A DNA stretch of 24,000 nt from Fidelibacterota bacterium UBA7300. Its GTDB lineage: Bacteria; Fidelibacterota; Marinisomatia; Marinisomatales; UBA2128. The translations under genes and the position numbers were made by a program. The notes under the pieces are model-generated. The model was given only the letters and a program-made list of their open reading frames with translations, was not told where the DNA came from and ran no database searches. The stretch is from the NCBI GenBank assembly GCA_002471865.1, contig DKQU01000041.1:23340-47339 (forward strand), given 5' to 3'. How positions within the stretch are numbered: position 1 is the first letter of the stretch; each line of letters opens with the position of its first letter. Below are positions 3-21,415 of the stretch, piece by piece.

Positions 3-770
3 CATAAGGATTATATATCTGCTGGGGCTCATGTGATTACCACCAACACTTTCCAGCTCAGCCGCCGCAGTTTCAGGAACCACTTTGCCAGCGACGAACA
101 CATGGCCCTCCAAGGTGTTGCTAACCTAACTGATCGGGTCGGAGAACTGGTCAATGATTCTGTTCAGTTAGCTGATGAGGCTCGGAAAGCGCTCGGCAGA
201 GATGATGTTCTTATTGCTGCTTCCATTACCACATTGGAGTGGTGCTTCAGACCTGATAAAACCCCTGATATTGAAAAAATCTATGATGAATACCTCGCAG
301 AGCTTACAGATTATTCAGACGCTGGCACCGACATATTTCTATTTGAGACCTTCAATTCCACTCCTGAAGCCGTTGTCGCTATCCGGGCAGCCAGGGAAGT
401 CGGTAAGCCTGGATGGATAGCCTTGGTTCCTTATAAGGACGGCAACCTGCTAGGAGGTGAGTCTATGGAGCAGGTGGTAGATGCTCTGGGTCCTGAGGAA
501 CCGGATGTACTTTTATTAAACTGTGCTCCGCCTCATCATGTTACTGCGGGTATGGAAAAACTTGCTCCCCTTTGGAAAAGCCCGCTGGGTGTTTATGCTC
601 ATGTGGGGAAATTCAATCCACCGGAATGGCACTTCACCAATGAGTATCCCCCAGATAAGTATCTTTCTGAATGTAAACATTGGCACGACTTGGGTGCTAC
701 CGTCATAGGAGGTTGTTGTGGTACCACACCTGAACACATAGCACTGATCTCCAATTCTCTTGAAGACTGA
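3..770 (+). CDS. Homocysteine S-methyltransferase family protein (Zn/Hcy-binding domain), 5' end cut by the window edge
   Basis: The frame is open from nt 3 (HKDYISAGAHVITTNTF, the conserved N-proximal family motif), so the GTG at 33 in the ORF track is not the true start. LLNCAPP and GGCCGTTPEHI supply the three Zn-ligand cysteines typical of this family. TGA stop at 768-770. Confidence 0.85.
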   Translation, partial: HKDYISAGAHVITTNTFQLSRRSFRNHFASDEHMALQGVANLTDRVGELVNDSVQLADEARKALGRDDVLIAASITTLEWCFRPDKTPDIEKIYDEYLAELTDYSDAGTDIFLFETFNSTPEAVVAIRAAREVGKPGWIALVPYKDGNLLGGESMEQVVDALGPEEPDVLLLNCAPPHHVTAGMEKLAPLWKSPLGVYAHVGKFNPPEWHFTNEYPPDKYLSECKHWHDLGATVIGGCCGTTPEHIALISNSLED

Positions 771-3903: not shown

Positions 3904-4674
3904 TCATATCACTCCACTTCCAAGCCCGATGGAAAGGATAATTAGCATCACAGCTACTAACTTTTGGATTTGCTCCATGGTGACTTTTTCCACCAGTCGT
4001 TTACCAATGAACGCTCCCAAAAATGCTGCTGTACATCCAGTGATTATAAGAGGAATATTCTCGCTTTCCACTCCGGTATTATGACTGCTGTAAATCGCCA
4101 ACCGAGCCACATCAACCAGACAGGCGATGGTTACACCAGTTCCGATGAACTGCTCTTTCGTAAGTCCTGCATTTGCCAGAAAGGCACTTCGTAATGCACC
4201 CTGATGACCGGAAAGTCCCCCCATTAACCCGCTCACGGCTCCTCCAAGTGGAAGGAACTTTGAAGCGAATTGGAGCTCACGGAACCGCGGCAACAAATCC
4301 AGCATGGCGAATCCTAGAATCAGTACCGAGACTACTAGTTTAACAGCTTCTACGGTCATTTCTTTTCCCAGCCAGTTATAAGAATAGAGAGGTTCCAAAC
4401 CTGAGAGCTGAGTAAGAATCCACGCTCCGACAAATGCGAGAGTCATAGCAGGCAGTCCAAATTGCAGCAGGATACGATTCTTCCGATGTTTTCCAAAGAG
4501 TATAACCTTGAAAATATTGTTTGCCAGATGAACTACTGCTGTTGCTGCGATTGCAATCTCGATGGGGAAGAAAATGGCCATAGCCGGCATCAATAAAGTG
4601 CCGAGTCCAAACCCTGAAAAGAGTGTGAGTCCGGATACAACAAGAGCTACAGCAGCAATGAGAACATATTCCAT
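3904..4674 (-). CDS. TauE/SafE (DUF81) family anion exporter, polytopic membrane protein
   Basis: 256 aa, about 8 hydrophobic Gly-rich segments in a 4+4 arrangement typical of TauE/SafE sulfite/organosulfonate exporter-like proteins. The ATG at 4674 directly abuts the TAG of the upstream arsC (TAGATG), and a GGAG lies about 10 nt upstream. Confidence 0.75.
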   Translation of the reverse strand: MEYVLIAAVALVVSGLTLFSGFGLGTLLMPAMAIFFPIEIAIAATAVVHLANNIFKVILFGKHRKNRILLQFGLPAMTLAFVGAWILTQLSGLEPLYSYNWLGKEMTVEAVKLVVSVLILGFAMLDLLPRFRELQFASKFLPLGGAVSGLMGGLSGHQGALRSAFLANAGLTKEQFIGTGVTIACLVDVARLAIYSSHNTGVESENIPLIITGCTAAFLGAFIGKRLVEKVTMEQIQKLVAVMLIILSIGLGSGVI

Positions 4675-5025
4675 CTACAGAAGCTCCAATACTTTTTCTG
4701 TAGGACGACCAAGTATTGCAAAACTGCCTTTTACAGCTATAGGTCGCTCAATCAATCTTGGATGAGCTGCCATCCGTTGAAAAAGTTCATCATCATCCTC
4801 AAGTTTATCCTTAAGCCCCAACTCTTTGTATTCAGATTCCCGCTTGCGAATGAATTGATTCGGTCTCAGCCCCATCATCTTAGCCAGTTTCCGGAGTTCC
4901 TCTTCCGTCGGCGGTTCATCAAGATACTTGATCAACTTCGGTTCAATCCCATTATCCTTGAGAAGCTTCACGGCTTCCCGGCTCTTTTTTCATCTGGGGT
5001 TGTGATAGATTACCATTTCACTCAT
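4675..5025 (-). CDS. arsC: ArsC-family (glutaredoxin-type) arsenate reductase with an in-frame TGA at the catalytic Cys position; candidate selenoprotein (116 aa counting Sec)
   Basis: Manual translation of the minus strand from ATG 5025-5023 gives MSEMVIYHNPR-TGA-KKSREAVKLLKDNGIEP..., continuous with track ORF 4675-4971. The TGA (4992-4990) replaces the Cys of the HNPxC(G/S)xSR motif (Cys12 of plasmid R773 ArsC, as recalled). The Arg triad equivalents are present (FIRKRE, IERPIA, LGRPTE). GGAGATAAAG sits directly before the ATG. A stem-loop lies 13 nt after the TGA. Confidence 0.75.
4960..4979 (-). promoter_or_regulatory. Candidate bacterial SECIS stem-loop downstream of the in-frame UGA
   Basis: The mRNA reads UGA-AAAAAGAGCC-GGGAAGC-CGUGAA-GCUUCUC. 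This forms a 7-bp stem (6 Watson-Crick pairs plus 1 G-U) with a 6-nt apical loop containing GU. The loop lies about 20-25 nt after the UGA, within the spacing usually described for bacterial SECIS elements. Confidence 0.5.
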
Positions 5026-5130
5026 CTTTATCTCCAAGTTAGTTTATGGCTAAAAAATAGCGATAAAGTTGTATGAAATGCCACTATCCATTGGAACTTT
5101 ATATTCTTTTTCTGAGTTATTCGGAAAGAA

Positions 5131-11389: not shown

Positions 11390-12229
11390 ATGCAGTTGAA
11401 AACTTATTTCCTAACATCAGAAATATCACCATTCTCTGAAACTGGTTTTCTCTCACTTTTCTCTAAGAATATACCCATTTATTTACAGGAAAAGGAACAG
11501 GATATAAGAATTACATCACCTAAATATGGTTATATCAGTGAGCGAAAGTATATCCTGAGAGAGGTAATCAGGCTTCGGGAGATAGAGTGTGAGATTGGTG
11601 ATGAGATGATAAAATCTTCGGCTAAATCTGCATTTATTCCTAAAACTAGAGTTCAGGTTTACTTTATGGAACATGCTGACTGGTTTCAGCCTTTGACTCC
11701 TCTTCTCTATAAATCCAGAAATGGTCGAATATTATCAGATAATGCTGAGAGATTTGGTTTTTTCAGTAAAATGGGTCTAGCCATGTTGACTGATCTTTTC
11801 TGGTGTCCCAACATAGTGATATGCAATAGTTGGCAAGCTGCGACTGTTCCACTTCTCAATAATCAAATTTACTCTAAGGAAGAGTTCTATGATGGTATTC
11901 AGACCGTTCTACTGATACACAGCCTTGATGAGAATGCTGTCATTCCGTCTGATACGTATGATACACTTGGAGTAAAACTTCCAGATAATATTAATGAAGA
12001 TGAAGTTAATTCACTTGTAGTTGGTGCATTAGCAGCTGATCTAGTCATTGCTGTGGACAGTCCTGAAGCAGAGATTTCTAAACAATTAGCGGAACATCCT
12101 GCATTTAAACCGCATTATAGTGCAATTAAAGGAAAGGTAAAAAAACTTAAGGTTTCAGATGATTCAACCACCTCGTTCCAATCTGCCGCAGGAGAGCTCG
12201 ACGGTCTGCTCAGGAAACTCGCTTCCTGA
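11390..12229 (+). CDS. Glycogen/starch synthase N-terminal (GT5) domain-only protein with a degenerate active-site motif
   Basis: 279 aa; GAGGAG Shine-Dalgarno upstream. It is colinear with the N-half of GlgA as recalled: SEISPFSETGFLSLF vs SE..P..KTGGLADV; NAERFGFF vs DN.LRFA.L; PNIVICNSWQAA vs PD.VH.HDW...; LIHSLDENA vs T.HN..YQG; LVIAVDSPEAEI vs ..TVSPTYA.EI. The C-terminal Rossmann half of the GT-B fold is absent. Confidence 0.6.
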   Translation: MQLKTYFLTSEISPFSETGFLSLFSKNIPIYLQEKEQDIRITSPKYGYISERKYILREVIRLREIECEIGDEMIKSSAKSAFIPKTRVQVYFMEHADWFQPLTPLLYKSRNGRILSDNAERFGFFSKMGLAMLTDLFWCPNIVICNSWQAATVPLLNNQIYSKEEFYDGIQTVLLIHSLDENAVIPSDTYDTLGVKLPDNINEDEVNSLVVGALAADLVIAVDSPEAEISKQLAEHPAFKPHYSAIKGKVKKLKVSDDSTTSFQSAAGELDGLLRKLAS

Positions 12230-12256: not shown

Positions 12257-13531
12257 GTGAGTAACTATCCTTTAAAATTCTTCTTGAAGTCATTAGTAAC
12301 CTTCTTCAGCATTTCCTTTTCTGTAATTTTCCTGATGTCTTGTATCGAGAATTCATTTCCAACTGATATAAGTGATTTACACCTTGATCTATTGGACACA
12401 GTAACTGTGGATATAGAATTATCACCTTATCAAACCCCGCCTGAGATTGGCTCTAATCGTTATCTTTATGTAGGGAGTAATGGAGACTTCACTATTTCTC
12501 GTACAGTTCTTAAAGTTGGCAGCCTCACTGCAATTCAGGACTCAACTTTTGAGATGATAGACAGTCGCATTGAATTGACTCTTGTTGACACTGTTTTGGA
12601 CATTCAGCCGTCATTTATTCTCTCATATTTTGCCATGGATTCTACTATCGAATTCTCTGAATCAGGAACCAACTTTGATAACGATGACTGGCTGGACGAA
12701 ATTGTATTTGATGGACAATTTACTGCTGATTCCCTGTCTCTTGACACATCCGGTATCTACACTGTTGAATTTCCAGTTGATACTTCTGTTGTGATGGAAT
12801 GGGCAGATACTTCTGCAGATCCGCAACTCCTAGTACTGGAAGCACCGGCGTTGAACAGCGAAGTTCTGCAATTTTATTCCACTGAAAATGGCTCGCTTGA
12901 GCCAGCACTTATAATCTCCTATAGTGATTCTGTAACTGTGACAGTGACTATTGATTCAATGGAAGTGGACACATTGATTCTGGATACATTAGAATTGGTT
13001 TTGGAGATGAGTTCTGATGTTTCCATAGTTGAACCACCTTTGTTTGCCGGCGGTGGATTCGATTCAACTCAAATCTACTTCAGTAATGGTGCTGGGATGA
13101 AAGCACTTATGAATGTGGACTTGGATTCACTAAATGTGCCTGAAGAAGCGGTAATACTGAAAGCAAAACTAGTTCTCTACAGCGATTCTACCAATTCCAA
13201 TTGGGAAGAAGATGGGACATTTAATATGAAGATAGCCACTCTGGAAGACAGTATCGCAAATGAGGATGATTTTATCTGGCCCGCATTTATTTCTGAGGAT
13301 AGCCTCGGTACAGGGACACTGAAAGTAAGTTCTCTTGATTCTACCGACATGCTAGTTCACAGAATTGATAGATTGATTGAAACGATATTCCTCGGGGTTG
13401 AAGATAATCTCGGTTTTAAGTTAGAGACATCTTCAGCTCCATCGATTTTTAACATTGTAGCTTTTCATACTTCTGATAACCCGGATTCAGCATTACATCC
13501 AAGATTGGAGATTTATTACGGTGTTCCTTAA
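12257..13531 (+). CDS. Acidic Ser/Thr/Asp-rich lipoprotein of unknown function (possibly DUF4270-like)
   Basis: 424 aa with a signal peptide and lipobox (SVIFLMSC) and an acidic beta-rich composition. The DUF4270 suggestion rests only on my recollection that small GT5-like genes are followed by DUF4270 lipoproteins in Bacteroidota. It is not verified here. Confidence 0.45.
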   Translation: MSNYPLKFFLKSLVTFFSISFSVIFLMSCIENSFPTDISDLHLDLLDTVTVDIELSPYQTPPEIGSNRYLYVGSNGDFTISRTVLKVGSLTAIQDSTFEMIDSRIELTLVDTVLDIQPSFILSYFAMDSTIEFSESGTNFDNDDWLDEIVFDGQFTADSLSLDTSGIYTVEFPVDTSVVMEWADTSADPQLLVLEAPALNSEVLQFYSTENGSLEPALIISYSDSVTVTVTIDSMEVDTLILDTLELVLEMSSDVSIVEPPLFAGGGFDSTQIYFSNGAGMKALMNVDLDSLNVPEEAVILKAKLVLYSDSTNSNWEEDGTFNMKIATLEDSIANEDDFIWPAFISEDSLGTGTLKVSSLDSTDMLVHRIDRLIETIFLGVEDNLGFKLETSSAPSIFNIVAFHTSDNPDSALHPRLEIYYGVP

Positions 13532-14792
13532 GAAAAGCGTATTGACCGTGGGATTATTGATGACTATGATATCAGCACAATCACCATATAATAGCGCTGG
13601 TATAGGTATGTTATCAGATTTTTCTGCAGCACCGGCTTTCGGTCTGGGGATGTCTGGTCTGATGGGAGGATTCAACCACTCAGTCTCTACTCAAAACCCA
13701 TCAACATGGCCTGAGTTGAATTTTAGCAAATTAACAGTGCATTATGTGGGCGGAGAGATTCAAAACCAAAGTTTTCGAACCAGTTTTGGAAGTCTTGGGG
13801 ATGCTTCTTTTATTTTACCTATTAAGGGTGAGTACGCATTAGGATTAGGGCTCAAACCGTTTGCCAACAAAACTTACCTACTCACTGATACTTCTGTTCT
13901 GGACACAATCTTTGCAGGTGATACTCTGGCATTATCCACCGATTTATCCGGATCTGGTGGTATTGGTTCATTTCGTACGGCAATAGCAAAAAGATTAAGT
14001 GATAGGTTAGCATTTGGAATTAGTACAGAGTTTCTTTTTGGTGTCTCTTCGGAATCAGCTATAATATCAGGACTCTTTTCCGGTGATACTACGGTAGTTA
14101 TAACACGTAATCACGAAATAAAGGGGACCTTTTTTTCTCTCTATTTAACTACTTCGCTTTTTGATACTCCAGCGAAATCTTCTCTGTATTTATCAATACG
14201 AGCACCTATTGGAACTCGAAGAATTATTGAACGTGCGGATCATGTTTTTATCGATAATGATGGCGATCAAGAATATACTCCTTGGGATGATCCGCTTCCA
14301 TATTATGTAAATAGTTCAGAAAACAATATTTCTTCTTTTTCACTTCCTGTTGATTTTTCAATTGGTGTAATGTATCATCTTAGTGGTTCTACTTATTTTG
14401 CTGGTGAGTTTGTTAGCCGCAACTTTGATAAAAATGATCTGTTTCCAACCTCTTCAATAAATTCAACAGTTGATTCCGGTCACCGTCTGGCTTTAGGGCT
14501 CCTTAAGGAGGGAACGACAGAAAGTAGATCTCTGCTGAGTCACCTCCATTACCGGATTGGATTTTTCAATAGACAACATTACATTTCAAACAACGGAGAA
14601 TCTGTCACTGAACAAGGTTTAGCTTTTGGAATTGGTATCCCTTTCGGCTTAACAAGAAATCAGATAGATATAGGTTATCAATTTGTTGAAAGATCTGGTT
14701 TTCTTTCTTCTGAACCTGAAATAGTAAATCAAATAACAATAGGTTTGACTCTCGGTGACGTGTGGTTGGCCAGTAGAAAACGGAGAAAATAA
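13521..14792 (+). CDS. Outer-membrane beta-barrel protein, unknown function
   Basis: 423 aa with a signal peptide MFLKKSVLTVGLLMTMISA/QS and alternating amphipathic beta-strand pattern throughout. The C-terminal region (ITIGLTLGDVW) is followed by a short basic tail. The N-terminal SPYNSAGIGML...GLGMSGL resembles plug/hatch segments of FadL-like barrels. Overlaps the upstream gene by 11 nt. Confidence 0.55.
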   Translation: MFLKKSVLTVGLLMTMISAQSPYNSAGIGMLSDFSAAPAFGLGMSGLMGGFNHSVSTQNPSTWPELNFSKLTVHYVGGEIQNQSFRTSFGSLGDASFILPIKGEYALGLGLKPFANKTYLLTDTSVLDTIFAGDTLALSTDLSGSGGIGSFRTAIAKRLSDRLAFGISTEFLFGVSSESAIISGLFSGDTTVVITRNHEIKGTFFSLYLTTSLFDTPAKSSLYLSIRAPIGTRRIIERADHVFIDNDGDQEYTPWDDPLPYYVNSSENNISSFSLPVDFSIGVMYHLSGSTYFAGEFVSRNFDKNDLFPTSSINSTVDSGHRLALGLLKEGTTESRSLLSHLHYRIGFFNRQHYISNNGESVTEQGLAFGIGIPFGLTRNQIDIGYQFVERSGFLSSEPEIVNQITIGLTLGDVWLASRKRRK

Positions 14793-17472: not shown

Positions 17473-18330
17473 TTGAAATCTAACAAAACTCTCCTCACTG
17501 CAACACTTTTATTGATTCTTTTCTTCTTTGGTTGTACTGCTCATCTGTTCAAGCACCATCCAAATCTAGCTGAACAACTCTTCGAGAAAAGGGTATCAAA
17601 ATCCGAGAAGCAGGTTCGTAAGCATCCTCGAGACAGCGCTGCTAAGTTGGAAGCGTGTAAAAATTTGACTATGTACGGTCACGTTTTCGTCTTACGTGAA
17701 TCCGAGATTATGGAAGAAGAAGATTTTACTCAAAGCCGAGAATTCCGGCTGGAGGCCAACAGTTTATTCCAGAATGCTTACAACTATGGTTTGGAGTCAC
17801 TTGATATTTTGCACCCTAGTTTTCAGGAGTCATTCCATAAAGATTCCGGAGTTATGCTGGGGAAAGTAACTATTGAGCAAGTTGATTATCTTTATTGGAC
17901 TGCGGCTGCACTTGGGAGTATGATCTCAACGGCAAAGGGTGACCCGTACGCAATTGCCGATCTTCCTAAAGTGGGTATTCTCATCGATAGGGCCATGGAA
18001 TTAAACGAGTCCTACGACAAAGGGAGTTTGCATGAGTTTATGATATCGTTCGTTCTCAGTCGTCCTGATTCACCTACTGATGCGATTGAAATTGCTAAAA
18101 ATCATTTCGACAAAGCTGTTGTACTTTCAGGCGGGAATCGAGCATCAGCATTTGTAACTTATGCAGAATCAATATGTACATTGGAGCAAGATCGATCGGA
18201 GTTTCTATCTATGCTCAATCGAGCCTTGGAGGTGGATGTTAACGCAGATCCTGATCTGAAACTATCCAATATCGTTTCTCAGGAACGGGCTGCATGGTTA
18301 AAGGAGCGAGTAGATGACCTCTTTTTCTAA
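17473..18330 (+). CDS. TatT-like TPR lipoprotein accessory component of a TRAP transporter (TPAT type)
   Basis: 285 aa, TTG start, lipobox LFFFGC, all-helical TPR-like sequence. It sits immediately upstream of dctP and fused dctQM, the same order as Treponema pallidum tatT-tatP-tatQM (recalled from the published TPAT description). Confidence 0.55.
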   Translation: MKSNKTLLTATLLLILFFFGCTAHLFKHHPNLAEQLFEKRVSKSEKQVRKHPRDSAAKLEACKNLTMYGHVFVLRESEIMEEEDFTQSREFRLEANSLFQNAYNYGLESLDILHPSFQESFHKDSGVMLGKVTIEQVDYLYWTAAALGSMISTAKGDPYAIADLPKVGILIDRAMELNESYDKGSLHEFMISFVLSRPDSPTDAIEIAKNHFDKAVVLSGGNRASAFVTYAESICTLEQDRSEFLSMLNRALEVDVNADPDLKLSNIVSQERAAWLKERVDDLFF

Positions 18331-18331
18331 C

Positions 18332-19327
18332 ATGTCTTTTTTTCGGAAAGCAGTAATCATATCTATCTTGGTTTTGGCTCCCGTTTTTATTCAGGCTCGT
18401 GTGGTTATTAAGATGGCTACACTGGCACCTAATGGTTCGCCTTGGCACGAGCTTTTGCTGGAAATGAGTCAGCGCTGGAAGAAGGCGACACGAGGAGAAG
18501 TGATAATAAAGATATATGCCGGCGGAGTGGCGGGAGAAGAGCGGGATGTGGTACGGAAAATGCGGATTGATCAACTGCAGGCTGCAGCGGTAACTGTCGA
18601 AGGTCTAACAGAAATCAGTCAGGACATGAACGTATTTTATATCCCCATGCTGGCTAAGACTTCGGAAGAACTCACGTTTATTAGAAACAACTTAACACCT
18701 GACCTAAAAAGTGATTTAAGCAGAAAAGGGTTCAAGCTTCTCGCTTGGGCTGATGTGGGGTGGGCATATTGGTTTACGAACAAAAAAGTAACTACTCCTA
18801 CTCAAATGAGAAAATTAAAGTTGTTTACCTGGGCAGGAGATTATCGTTTTGTAGATCTATATAAACAATTTGGTTTTCATCCGGTTCCTATGTCAACTGC
18901 AGATATGTTAACTTCTTTACAAACTAAAATAATAGATGGGTTTGCTACAACGCCAATGTTTGCACTCTCTTTCCAATGGTTTGCTTTGGCGCCAAACATG
19001 CTAAACATGAAATGGGGTCCTATCATCGGAGGTGTGGTAATCACCAAGGAAACTTGGAACAAAATTCCTGAAAAGTATCATCATGAGCTAGAGTCTATTT
19101 CTGCAGATATCGAGAAAAAAGCTGCTGAATTCGTGGTGATGACTGAGAAGGCTTTGGATGTTATGAAAGATAACAATCTCACTGTTCACGAACTGTCCGT
19201 TACAGAGATGAAAAAGTGGGAAGATCAAATGTTGGATGCTTATCCATATGTAAGAGGTTCAATTGTACCGGATGCGATATTTGATAAAGCAATTGAATTG
19301 AAAAGCGAGTACCGAAATAGGAATTAA
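18332..19327 (+). CDS. TRAP transporter substrate-binding protein (DctP family)
   Basis: The track ORF starts at 18314, but ATG 18332, one nt after the tatT TAA, gives a clean signal peptide MSFFRKAVIISILVLAPVFIQA. Mature start VIKMATLAPNGSPWH and overall length fit DctP-type SBPs. Confidence 0.8.
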   Translation: MSFFRKAVIISILVLAPVFIQARVVIKMATLAPNGSPWHELLLEMSQRWKKATRGEVIIKIYAGGVAGEERDVVRKMRIDQLQAAAVTVEGLTEISQDMNVFYIPMLAKTSEELTFIRNNLTPDLKSDLSRKGFKLLAWADVGWAYWFTNKKVTTPTQMRKLKLFTWAGDYRFVDLYKQFGFHPVPMSTADMLTSLQTKIIDGFATTPMFALSFQWFALAPNMLNMKWGPIIGGVVITKETWNKIPEKYHHELESISADIEKKAAEFVVMTEKALDVMKDNNLTVHELSVTEMKKWEDQMLDAYPYVRGSIVPDAIFDKAIELKSEYRNRN

Positions 19328-19393
19328 GAATATAATACAAGATACATTTAGTCAATCAATAGATTGTATAGATATAATTAATCTTCTAGGCTT

Positions 19394-21415
19394 GTGACTC
19401 GGATAGTAACAGTAGTAGCTGTTTTTTCACTGTTGGGTATGGCTTTGCTGCCTACTGTCGAATCTCTCAGTCGGATAGGTATTGGTATTCCACCCATTCC
19501 CGGTTCAGAGGGATTTGTTCTTCTGGCAACTCTATGGGTTGCATTTTTGGGTGCTATTTTGGCTGCTCGAGATAAACGTCTGTTGGCGTTATCACAGGAA
19601 GTAGAGTATTCAGATAACCAACCGGTTAGCTTGCGGACACTGTACAGCAATACCATGACTTTTGTGCTTGTGTCAGTCATGACCTACGCTAGTGCAGGGT
19701 TCGTCTTGGAGAATTTTGCTGCAGAGACAAAAGTAGTCCCCGCACCGTTCTGGGTAGTAGCAGTGATAATACCCATTGGATTCGCTTTAATAACTACTTC
19801 AGTATTCTTGGTGAGTCCTAGAAATATCCTTGTTCGAGGGTCCATGATTTTCGCAATAATTATTGTTTCGATCATGGGCTACTTTGAGTTGTTTACTCAG
19901 CCACAGTTCTTTTGGATAGGAGTTGTCTTGATTCTTGTCTCATTTCCTATGGGTGTCCCCATCTTTGCAGTTTTAGGCGGTTTATCCATGCTTATACTTC
20001 ATTACAATTTTGGCACTATTCAGACCATTGCGAATGAAGCTTTTACTATAACTGAAAAATATGAATACGCCACCATACCGCTCTTTGCTTTGACAGGATA
20101 TATTTTGGCGGAAGGGGGAGCACCCAAGCGATTAGTGGGGGTATTCCATAACTGGTTCGGTTGGATGCCGGGTGGAACTCCAATTGCGACTGCGCTGATT
20201 TGCGCTTTCTTCACAGCCTTAACGGGAGGTTCTGGTGTCACTATTCTTGCTCTTGGCGGACTCCTCCTGCCTATGCTGCGTGAAGAAGGTTATCCATTGG
20301 GATTTTCCATAGGATTAATTACCGTTTCCGGCTCACTGGGTCTTCTTTTTCCTCCAAGTCTACCACTTATCCTTTATGGCGTAAGAGGTGGTACTTCTAT
20401 GCAGTTAGGAATTGATAAAATCTTCCAGGCTGCTTTTGTCCCGGGACTTATTTTAGTGGGCTTGGTTAGCTTATGGGGAATCCGGCAGAGTTATATATCC
20501 AAAGTTGAACGGACTTCTTTTGATCTTAACCGGGCTGTAAAGTCTCTTTGGGAGGCTAAATGGGAGGTAGTGATACCTTTCCTAATTCTTCTCTCAATTC
20601 TTACAGGTTTTACCCGCCTCGTAGAGGTAGCTGCCATGAGTGCGGTTTATTCTCTCATTGTGGAAGTTTATATTTATAAAGACCTAAAACTGGATGATCT
20701 ATATAAAGTTGTTGCAAAATGCGCCAAATTCGTTGGAGGTATCCTTATAATCATTGCTATGGCAAAAGCACTTAATCTGGCATTTGTGGATATTTATTTT
20801 TACGAGACTATGATAAATTGGATAGAAAACAATATTCATAACAAATTTGTTTTATTGTTGGCACTAAACATCTTTTTACTCATTGTAGGGTGTCTAATGG
20901 ATATTTTTTCTGCGATCATTATCATTGTACCACTTATAAGTCAACTTTTCAGTTCGTCAACATTTTCTATGTTTGGAGAATTTTCTGAAGGTGGGATTGC
21001 CATGATGCTCGGGCTTCAAGCTGTTCATATCGCAGTTATCTTTATTGCCAATCTAGAGTTGGGTTATATAACTCCTCCCGTCGGAATGAACTTGTTTCTT
21101 TCGGCTTATCGTTTCGACAAACCTCTCTCAAAGATTTACCGAGCTACACTTCCTTACTTTTTGATTCTGTTGTTTGGTGTTATGGTGATTACTTACGTGC
21201 CTATCGCCTTCCCCGGACTGTTACCCGGTATAGAATCTTCCTCGACTGATAGCGACGAAGATGGAATGCCCGATTGGTGGGAAAAGGCATTTATGCTCAA
21301 TGTCAACGAAGATGATTCAGGAAAAGATTCTGATAAAGATGGTGTGACCAATCTGGAAGAATTTAATCAGGGAAGCAATCCACGAAAACCACCCGAGTTG
21401 GATGACAGTGGTTAA
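19394..21415 (+). CDS. TRAP transporter fused small/large permease (DctQ-DctM) with a C-terminal TSP3-like Ca-binding repeat tail
   Basis: 673 aa. The N-terminal approx. 170 aa have 4 TM segments (DctQ-like: LATLWVAFLGAILAARDKRLLAL). A polytopic DctM-like domain follows (IPLFALTGYILAEGG, FFTALTGGSGVTILALG, GSLGLLFPPSLPLILYG, ELGYITPPVGMNLFL). The last approx. 60 aa are soluble and acidic with two DxDxDG motifs. Confidence 0.85.
   Translation: MTRIVTVVAVFSLLGMALLPTVESLSRIGIGIPPIPGSEGFVLLATLWVAFLGAILAARDKRLLALSQEVEYSDNQPVSLRTLYSNTMTFVLVSVMTYASAGFVLENFAAETKVVPAPFWVVAVIIPIGFALITTSVFLVSPRNILVRGSMIFAIIIVSIMGYFELFTQPQFFWIGVVLILVSFPMGVPIFAVLGGLSMLILHYNFGTIQTIANEAFTITEKYEYATIPLFALTGYILAEGGAPKRLVGVFHNWFGWMPGGTPIATALICAFFTALTGGSGVTILALGGLLLPMLREEGYPLGFSIGLITVSGSLGLLFPPSLPLILYGVRGGTSMQLGIDKIFQAAFVPGLILVGLVSLWGIRQSYISKVERTSFDLNRAVKSLWEAKWEVVIPFLILLSILTGFTRLVEVAAMSAVYSLIVEVYIYKDLKLDDLYKVVAKCAKFVGGILIIIAMAKALNLAFVDIYFYETMINWIENNIHNKFVLLLALNIFLLIVGCLMDIFSAIIIIVPLISQLFSSSTFSMFGEFSEGGIAMMLGLQAVHIAVIFIANLELGYITPPVGMNLFLSAYRFDKPLSKIYRATLPYFLILLFGVMVITYVPIAFPGLLPGIESSSTDSDEDGMPDWWEKAFMLNVNEDDSGKDSDKDGVTNLEEFNQGSNPRKPPELDDSG

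Follow-up and report, generated by a model that had tools for sequence, protein, structure and literature searches.

The question raised by a short gene on the minus strand of contig DKQU01000041.1 (Fidelibacterota bacterium UBA7300, assembly GCA_002471865.1) is how an in-frame TGA codon close to its start is read, i.e. as a stop, as a standard amino acid or as selenocysteine (Sec). The stretch of DNA analysed here, in the following referred to as the window, comprises 24,000 nucleotides (nt), and within it a single frame of 116 codons runs from ATG 5025-5023 to the stop codon TAG 4677-4675, with TGA 4992-4990 as the only interruption. Direct translation yields the ATG, ten sense codons (S E M V I Y H N P R), the TGA, 104 more sense codons (K K S R E A V K L L and further, up to the C-terminus L E L L) and the TAG. 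The preliminary description of the window had noted the continuity of this frame, as well as the fact that the list of open reading frames (ORFs) holds just a 98-residue piece (4675..4971) that starts at an internal GTG, and both observations proved accurate. It had furthermore proposed that the TGA takes the place of the nucleophilic Cys of a glutaredoxin-type arsenate reductase (ArsC). From the family assignment, the comparison of homologues and the analysis of an RNA hairpin that follows the TGA, we conclude that the gene very probably encodes a genuine Sec-decoded selenoprotein of the ArsC family.

In the case of the family assignment, scores were obtained for a version of the protein in which Sec (U) was replaced by Cys. 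This version passed the cut-off of the equivalog model for glutaredoxin-type arsC, TIGR00014 (129.8 versus 106.05 bits), as well as that of the Pfam ArsC family PF03960 (65.1 versus 24 bits), and it failed that of the E. coli ArsC-specific model PRK10026 (97.8 versus 242 bits). R773 ArsC (1i9d/1jzw) aligns with it from residues 1-116 to 1-116 with zero gaps, and the TGA therefore sits on Cys12, precisely the position that had been predicted. The equivalents of the three arsenate-binding residues Arg60, Arg94 and Arg107 had been described as intact, and they are indeed present and invariant among the orthologues. The ORF has zero Trp codons and also zero Cys codons, and because of the latter the TGA-encoded residue would be the sole chalcogen nucleophile of the protein. 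Two other assignments were tried and rejected, namely the Spx/MgsR regulators (TIGR01617 at 57.2 bits, below its cut-off of 75.05, and no second Cys for a CxxC motif) and the UxxC family 'ArsC 2' (the motif here is UKKS, the ORF is without a Cys codon and NF041106 is not among the NCBIfam matches). The proteins known as 'Arsenate reductase 2' or 'arsenate reductase-like protein' (cd03032, NF041106) are likewise ArsC/Spx-fold selenoproteins from marine metagenomes, but they have UxxC where the window gene has UxxS, and the window gene is not a member of that group.

Homologues were collected by a search that covered 5.8 billion proteins. The seven closest relatives are 65-93% identical to the query, cover 84% of it and are all 98-99 residues long; at lower identity (53-63%) the relatives are complete, with lengths of 113-123 residues. 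With one further, full-length entry included (P0006, see below) the closest homologues span 63-93% identity, and all of these carry a TGA in their DNA. In every one of the 14 orthologous loci (L001-L014) the in-frame TGA directly follows YHNPR, and in each locus that reaches far enough upstream (L001-L013) an ATG is found 11 codons 5' of the TGA, preceded by GGAG(G). The GGAG that had been noted before the ATG in the window is there, and GGAG or GGAGG is equally placed in five of the orthologues. The YHNPR motif itself is preserved via synonymous changes (CAC/CAT, CCC/CCG/CCA and AGA/CGG/CGC). A lack of conservation upstream of the TGA had been named as a finding that would speak against Sec; what is observed is the retention of YHNPR, ATG and GGAG(G). 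An error of sequencing or assembly, the other such possibility, is ruled out because the identical truncated 98-residue product is called on 48 contigs and members of its 90% cluster on hundreds more, and the TGA is present in every related lineage examined.

A larger set was obtained by scanning metagenome contigs with a pattern that required the TGA. The pattern fixed HNPR-TGA-xKSR plus positions 1 and 2 of the codon that follows, and left free both the upstream ATG and everything from 18 nt past the TGA onwards. At least 119 stretches were found, from which 103 distinct full-length Sec-type genes and three chance matches were derived; the Sec-type statistics given here rest on the 103 distinct genes among the matches listed. 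In nearly all of them an ATG lies 8-12 codons 5' of the TGA, though the pattern did not demand it, and their proteins are diverse beyond the hairpin region (median pairwise identity 42%, minimum 18%). The expectation that Cys-containing orthologues would align across the TGA was borne out: Cys-type homologues read YHNPRCSKSR where the window has YHNPR-TGA-KKSR, and the residue opposite the TGA is Cys, in no case Trp or Gly. A profile search of genome contigs, in which Cys was back-translated as TGY and which consequently returned Cys-type genes only, yielded 590 of these from Proteobacteria and other phyla, the best 80 of which match essentially the whole protein (residues 1-116). This set was re-used as a negative control.

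As had been anticipated, gene callers mis-annotate such genes, and the public collections store truncated products of 98-99 residues for the Sec-type orthologues. That these collections and the ORF list hold the 98-residue product only might be taken to mean that translation really ends at the TGA, the gene being either a pseudogene or the template of a 98-residue protein that starts at the internal GTG; such a product, however, would be without the first beta-strand and the catalytic loop, and the GTG forms part of the apical loop of a conserved hairpin (see below) with no properly spaced ribosome-binding site in front of it. The claim that the GTG lacks a ribosome-binding site altogether needs qualification, in that GGGAAG lies 2 nt 5' of it, which is too close for a normal site. 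Genes for the Sec machinery were not found in the DNA searched (the window, 10 kb past each end and about 2.1 Mb of fetched loci), which would agree with a true stop, yet the 11 upstream codons, the ATG and the Shine-Dalgarno sequence are kept in every lineage with synonymous variation, and a stop at one exact codon across at least 103 genes with a median identity of about 42% is unlike what is seen in pseudogenes. We therefore give practically no credence to a true stop.

A second kind of mis-annotation bears on the possibility that the UGA stands for one of the standard amino acids, be it through reassignment of the code (table 4 or 25) or through near-cognate read-through with Trp or Cys. 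The NCBI-derived entry P0006 (locus L014 108-458, GCA_001628635.1, contig LULX01016413.1) is full length and has Trp at the Sec position (YHNPRWKKSR), and the failure to find Sec machinery in the DNA searched would be in line with such a reading as well. The codon in the DNA of P0006 is TGA, however, and because the stored product also mismatches the table-11 translation of its own locus, its Trp is an artefact of TGA=Trp translation that stems from gene calling. In the window TGA is an ordinary stop that ends 7 of the 21 genes, including the two directly downstream of the ArsC gene, and a reassigned code 4 or 25 is thereby excluded; an in-frame TGA occurs nowhere else in the 21 genes, and TGG encodes Trp 105 times. 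The alignment of the position with Cys argues against a standard amino acid too, and plain read-through needs no conserved hairpin of the kind described below. Decoding as a standard amino acid is accordingly highly improbable.

Sec decoding in bacteria is associated with a Sec insertion sequence (SECIS), and the preliminary description had placed a hairpin at SECIS distance from the TGA. The bacterial SECIS (bSECIS) model (PMC13188914 Fig. 2A) comprises (i) an apical loop of 3-9 nt on a stem of 4-16 base pairs (bp), (ii) a G within the first two loop positions, (iii) a distance of 16-37 nt between UGA and loop and (iv) a minimum free energy (MFE) of -7.5 kcal/mol or lower. All four features are found in the window hairpin, which has a 6-nt loop with G-U at positions 2-3, a 7-bp stem that spans nt +14 to +33 (numbered from the T of the TGA), a 17-nt spacing and an MFE of -9.8 kcal/mol; two extra lower pairs (4981-4980 with 4957-4956) are formed across an AA bulge. 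Features i-iii are shared by 88 of the 103 Sec-type sequences, 85 of which have the same 17-nt spacing, and all four, energy included, by 47 of the 103. Read in the same codon register, the Cys-type sequences show features i-iii in 11 of 80 cases, at scattered positions; the conserved hairpin itself is absent from the Cys-type genes. The loop sequence CGUG is present in 96 of the 103 Sec-type sequences.

The strongest single result for the hairpin is the constraint on synonymous sites. At the third codon positions inside the hairpin (+18, +21, +24, +27 and +30) the entropy is 0.36-0.55 bits in the Sec-type genes versus 1.1-1.8 bits in the Cys-type genes, whereas outside the hairpin it is about 1.6-1.9 bits in both. 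The constraint is therefore exerted at the RNA level, is local and is present only where the TGA is present. Base pairing points in the same direction. In an ungapped alignment (A2) 87.5% of the paired cells are complementary, versus 80.5 ± 0.7% after column shuffling (0 of 500 shuffles being as high), and displacing the 3' partner lowers the pairing to 30-61%. The stem pair at alignment columns 25/34 is U-A in 57 sequences, G-C in 46 and broken in none, so that the TGA-containing orthologues with a compensatory change in the hairpin that had been called for do exist (at least 103 genes). On a neighbour-joining protein tree from which the hairpin region was excluded, the switches between U-A and G-C amount to at least four independent events, versus about 34 under random labelling. 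A covariance model built from A2, with the window as one of its training sequences, finds one site in the window, at 64.1 bits, and its best hit over 1.4 Mb of Cys-type loci is not significant (15.5 bits, E = 0.85).

Some Sec-type genes have a hairpin of a different make. A minority subgroup with the motif SRDSVRIL forms GAUUC-AGUUA-GAAUC, with a 5-nt loop and a 3' arm that is shifted by one base, and retains the 17-nt spacing and the G-U of the loop (L106 3236-3289, L130 2783-2836, L156 1701-1754, L193 354-407, L208 2310-2363 and L210 7247-7300). Another variant, with an 8-nt loop, occurs in L155. Like the E. coli fdhF/fdnG-type SECIS and the bSECIS consensus of Zhang and Gladyshev, the hairpin lies inside the coding sequence directly past the UGA. 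It differs from these elements in that it has no detectable sequence similarity to Rfam families and in its short, AU-rich stem, and many members of the family lie above the -7.5 kcal/mol of the bSECIS model; binding of SelB is a prediction.

If the above is correct, decoding would proceed as follows. Translation would begin at ATG 5025, and the ribosome would pass UGA 4992-4990 without terminating, with the intragenic hairpin (7-bp stem, loop CGUGAA 17 nt past the UGA) serving as a bacterial SECIS. This element would recruit SelB-GTP-Sec-tRNA(Sec), after which Sec would be inserted and translation would continue to TAG 4675. In the resulting enzyme the Sec12 selenolate might take the role of the Cys12 thiolate and attack arsenate bound by Arg60, Arg94 and Arg107, and glutathione and glutaredoxin would then resolve the adduct, upon which arsenite would be released. 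Three parts of this scheme are inferred, namely that Sec is inserted in a SelB-dependent manner, that this genome contains the Sec machinery and that the enzyme acts on arsenate in the cell.

A number of results weigh against Sec decoding by way of a SECIS. The fold of the single sequence has z = -0.18 relative to shuffles, i.e. no excess of stability, and thermodynamic stability alone therefore gives the hairpin no support. RNAalifold returned no pairs and no consensus structure for the 103-sequence alignment. The suggestion to run a SECIS model on the hairpin was answered in two ways: no Rfam SECIS family was found in the window at gathering thresholds or in 4850-5050 at E <= 10 (which gave spurious lncRNA and snoRNA matches only), while the bSECIS features are there and the A2 covariance model is specific to the Sec-type. 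Two-sided change is limited to one stem pair, and this variable pair may have a protein-level cause, given that the change goes together with replacements of Ala/Ser and Leu/Ile at residues spaced four apart. At the level of the genome, ARAGORN detected no tRNA-Sec and no selA, selB or selD was found in the DNA searched as defined above; tblastn with the SelA, SelB and SelD proteins of E. coli K-12 as queries gave two weak matches only (28-29% identity over 82-89 residues), which are taken to be other members of the superfamily that contains SelD. In a 2016 survey of 5,200 bacterial genomes, the sole published one encountered that includes SAR406, three single-cell genomes of SAR406 were classified as 'orphan SelD' (PMC5029168 Table 1), i.e. 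selD was present and the other components of selenium utilisation, as well as selenoprotein genes, were undetected in these partial genomes. The selD genes of that survey, on the other hand, count in favour of Sec decoding (PMC5029168). As a Sec-type ArsC is conserved in the phylum, the data suggest that the 'orphan SelD' label reflects the incompleteness of the genomes and not an unknown SelD-dependent trait.

With respect to the substrate, arsenate seems the probable one, at a lower level of confidence than the Sec decoding itself. The assignment is based on the equivalog model and on residue conservation, because no arsR, arsB or acr3 gene lies nearby (none in the window or 10 kb past each end); such a context is typical of glutaredoxin-type ArsC, though not obligatory. 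Among the solved structures the best matches are 3f0i (110 bits) and 3rdw (101.7 bits), which outscore R773 ArsC (88 bits); these nearest solved relatives are short proteins of 119-121 residues that were deposited as 'arsenate reductase' or 'putative arsenate reductase' (the latter 3rdw). The window protein shares with R773 / E. coli ArsC (1i9d, 1j9b, 1jzw) the Cys12 position, the three Arg residues and the YHNPxC-type N-terminal motif, but differs from it in the predicted Sec in place of Cys12, in its length (116 versus 141 residues, without the C-terminal extension), in the location of its gene outside any arsRBC operon and in the failure to reach the PRK10026 cut-off. These differences, taken together with the housekeeping neighbourhood without an arsenite efflux pump or ArsR and with a 2026 review that calls the functions of such selenoproteins largely uncharacterised (PMC13188914), would fit a small ArsC-fold selenol/thiol reductase that does carry Sec and has a physiological substrate other than arsenate; considering that the protein scores above the cut-off of an equivalog-level model and keeps the Cys12 position and the three arsenate-binding Arg residues in a gapless alignment with R773 ArsC, we find such another role rather unlikely, and arsenate remains our preferred substrate. 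The coordinates of the features are collected in Table 1.

Table 1. Features of the ArsC locus in the window (positions are those of the window)
Feature	Position	Strand	Basis
ArsC-family gene at full length (Met1-Leu116, predicted Sec12, stop TAG)	4675..5025	-	translation, TIGR00014, PF03960, gapless R773 alignment
Shine-Dalgarno sequence GGAG, 6 nt 5' of the upstream ATG	5032..5035	-	sequence; orthologues
In-frame TGA, putative Sec codon at catalytic Cys12 position; motif U-K-K-S = UxxS	4990..4992	-	
GTG, codon of Val19, called as start of the 98-residue fragment; equals conserved GUG of the apical loop	4969..4971	-	
SECIS-like hairpin (5' arm 4979-4973, loop CGUGAA 4972-4967, 3' arm 4966-4960)	4956..4981	-	MFE fold
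Arg60 codon CGC (R773 ArsC Arg60); invariant in orthologue alignment A1	4846..4848	-	
Arg94 codon CGA (R773 ArsC Arg94); invariant in orthologue alignment A1	4744..4746	-	
Arg107 codon CGT (R773 ArsC Arg107); invariant in orthologue alignment A1	4705..4707	-	
TauE/SafE-family permease, ATG 4674 directly after the ArsC stop (TAG-ATG)	3904..4674	-	PF01925 84.9 bits

The neighbours of the ArsC gene in the window are mreBCD-PBP2-rodA and the genes for TauE, a GNAT acetyltransferase, an M15 peptidase and P5C dehydrogenase. The MreB, SHMT and P5C dehydrogenase of the window are identical to NCBI proteins assigned to Candidatus Marinimicrobia (SAR406, Neomarinimicrobiota), a marine group. This arrangement recurs in the Marinimicrobia-type loci, where the ArsC gene is divergent from mreB-mreC-mreD-PBP2-rodA and is usually followed by the genes for the TauE/SafE-family permease, the GNAT acetyltransferase and the M15 peptidase. 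Scans for promoters and terminators around the ArsC gene stayed at background level. The genes for ArsC and TauE are probably co-transcribed, and the abutment of the TauE ATG on the ArsC TAG suggests translational coupling. Their adjacency was observed in 11 Marinimicrobia-type loci, with TauE identities down to 47% (TauE is absent from L001), and in no other Sec-type locus and none of the 76 Cys-type loci with sufficient flanking sequence. A general functional partnership between TauE and ArsC was therefore rejected, the adjacency being restricted to the Marinimicrobia-type clade; we treat the pairing as lineage synteny, and the two genes may or may not share a function.

Several other parts of the window deserve mention. 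Some members of the homocysteine S-methyltransferase family (PF02574) methylate seleno-amino acids. Two tandem genes of this family are located beyond the P5C dehydrogenase gene (window 33-770 on the plus strand, L214 11642-13488), the window including the end of one of them. Two overlapping ORFs on the plus strand (12257-13531 and 13521-14792) encode proteins of about 424 residues each without a Pfam match; their order is conserved in L001 and L217, and they are flanked by the genes for a Glyco_transf_5 protein and a TPR protein, the former (11390-12229) consisting of 279 residues with the starch-synthase catalytic domain only. Further on, a TRAP-type cluster (17473-21415, plus strand) encodes a TAtT T-component (PF16811), a DctP solute-binding protein and a fused DctQ-DctM of 673 residues, and is followed by the genes for PorV and for a protein with a Por secretion tail (type IX secretion).

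The ArsC of Bacillus subtilis belongs to an unrelated, phosphatase-fold class of ArsC. An engineered form of that enzyme, with Sec introduced at position 89 by amber suppression (PMC4150793), is the only experimental Sec-ArsC found in the literature searched, in which no enzyme assay of a natural Sec-ArsC was encountered. This agrees with the statement in the preliminary description that none has been characterised biochemically, and with the 2026 review, according to which nearly all such selenoproteins are known from bioinformatics only (PMC13188914). The remark that Sec-containing ArsC homologues had appeared in marine selenoproteome surveys was likewise correct: a 2005 study of Sargasso Sea sequences predicted an arsenate reductase family with Sec in UxxS, comprising 14 sequences and accompanied by a SECIS figure (PMC1088965), and the GOS study of 2008 listed 77 Sec sequences versus 784 Cys homologues under 'ArsC 1' (PMC2398784). 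Reviews from 2022 (PMC9312934) and 2026 (PMC13188914) place the family under COG1393 and TIGR00014, with MBT3519430.1 as an example. The definition given by Zhang, Fomenko and Gladyshev in 2005, namely COG1393/pfam03960 with Sec in UxxS, describes the U12-K-K-S15 of the window protein. With 'ArsC 1' the window gene shares pfam03960/TIGR00014, UxxS, the predicted Sec at the catalytic Cys, a downstream SECIS-like hairpin with a G in the loop and the marine origin; there is no difference in kind, and the gene is a member.

The selenoprotein family has thus been described before, and the locus represents no new kind of system. The present analysis contributes the attribution to Marinimicrobia/SAR406, the conserved locus beside mreBCD with the coupled TauE, and quantitative evidence from covariation and synonymous sites that the SECIS hairpin of the family is under RNA-level selection. 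A direct consequence concerns annotation, since the active site is absent from most annotations of an abundant ocean lineage, where the protein appears as a 98-residue fragment and once as a Trp-containing protein, i.e. in the two forms of mis-annotation (truncation and TGA=Trp translation) that affect Sec-ArsC. The gene also lends itself well to biochemistry, which would be the first on a naturally occurring Sec-ArsC and in which the attack of a selenolate on arsenate could be compared with that of a thiolate.

At the level of the organism, Sec-ArsC provides evidence for the use of the Sec pathway by SAR406. It is possible, if still somewhat doubtful, that these bacteria do decode Sec and that Sec-ArsC is a conserved core-genome selenoprotein in them, beside mreBCD and coupled to the TauE-family permease. 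If so, the repeated compensatory stem switches, in combination with the invariant CGUG loop, would be among the cleanest natural cases of covariation in a bacterial SECIS, and SAR406 would no longer count among the candidates for an unknown SelD-dependent selenium trait. Such decoding would also point to selenium-dependent handling of arsenate, or to another redox reaction of the ArsC fold, as widespread in these ocean bacteria.

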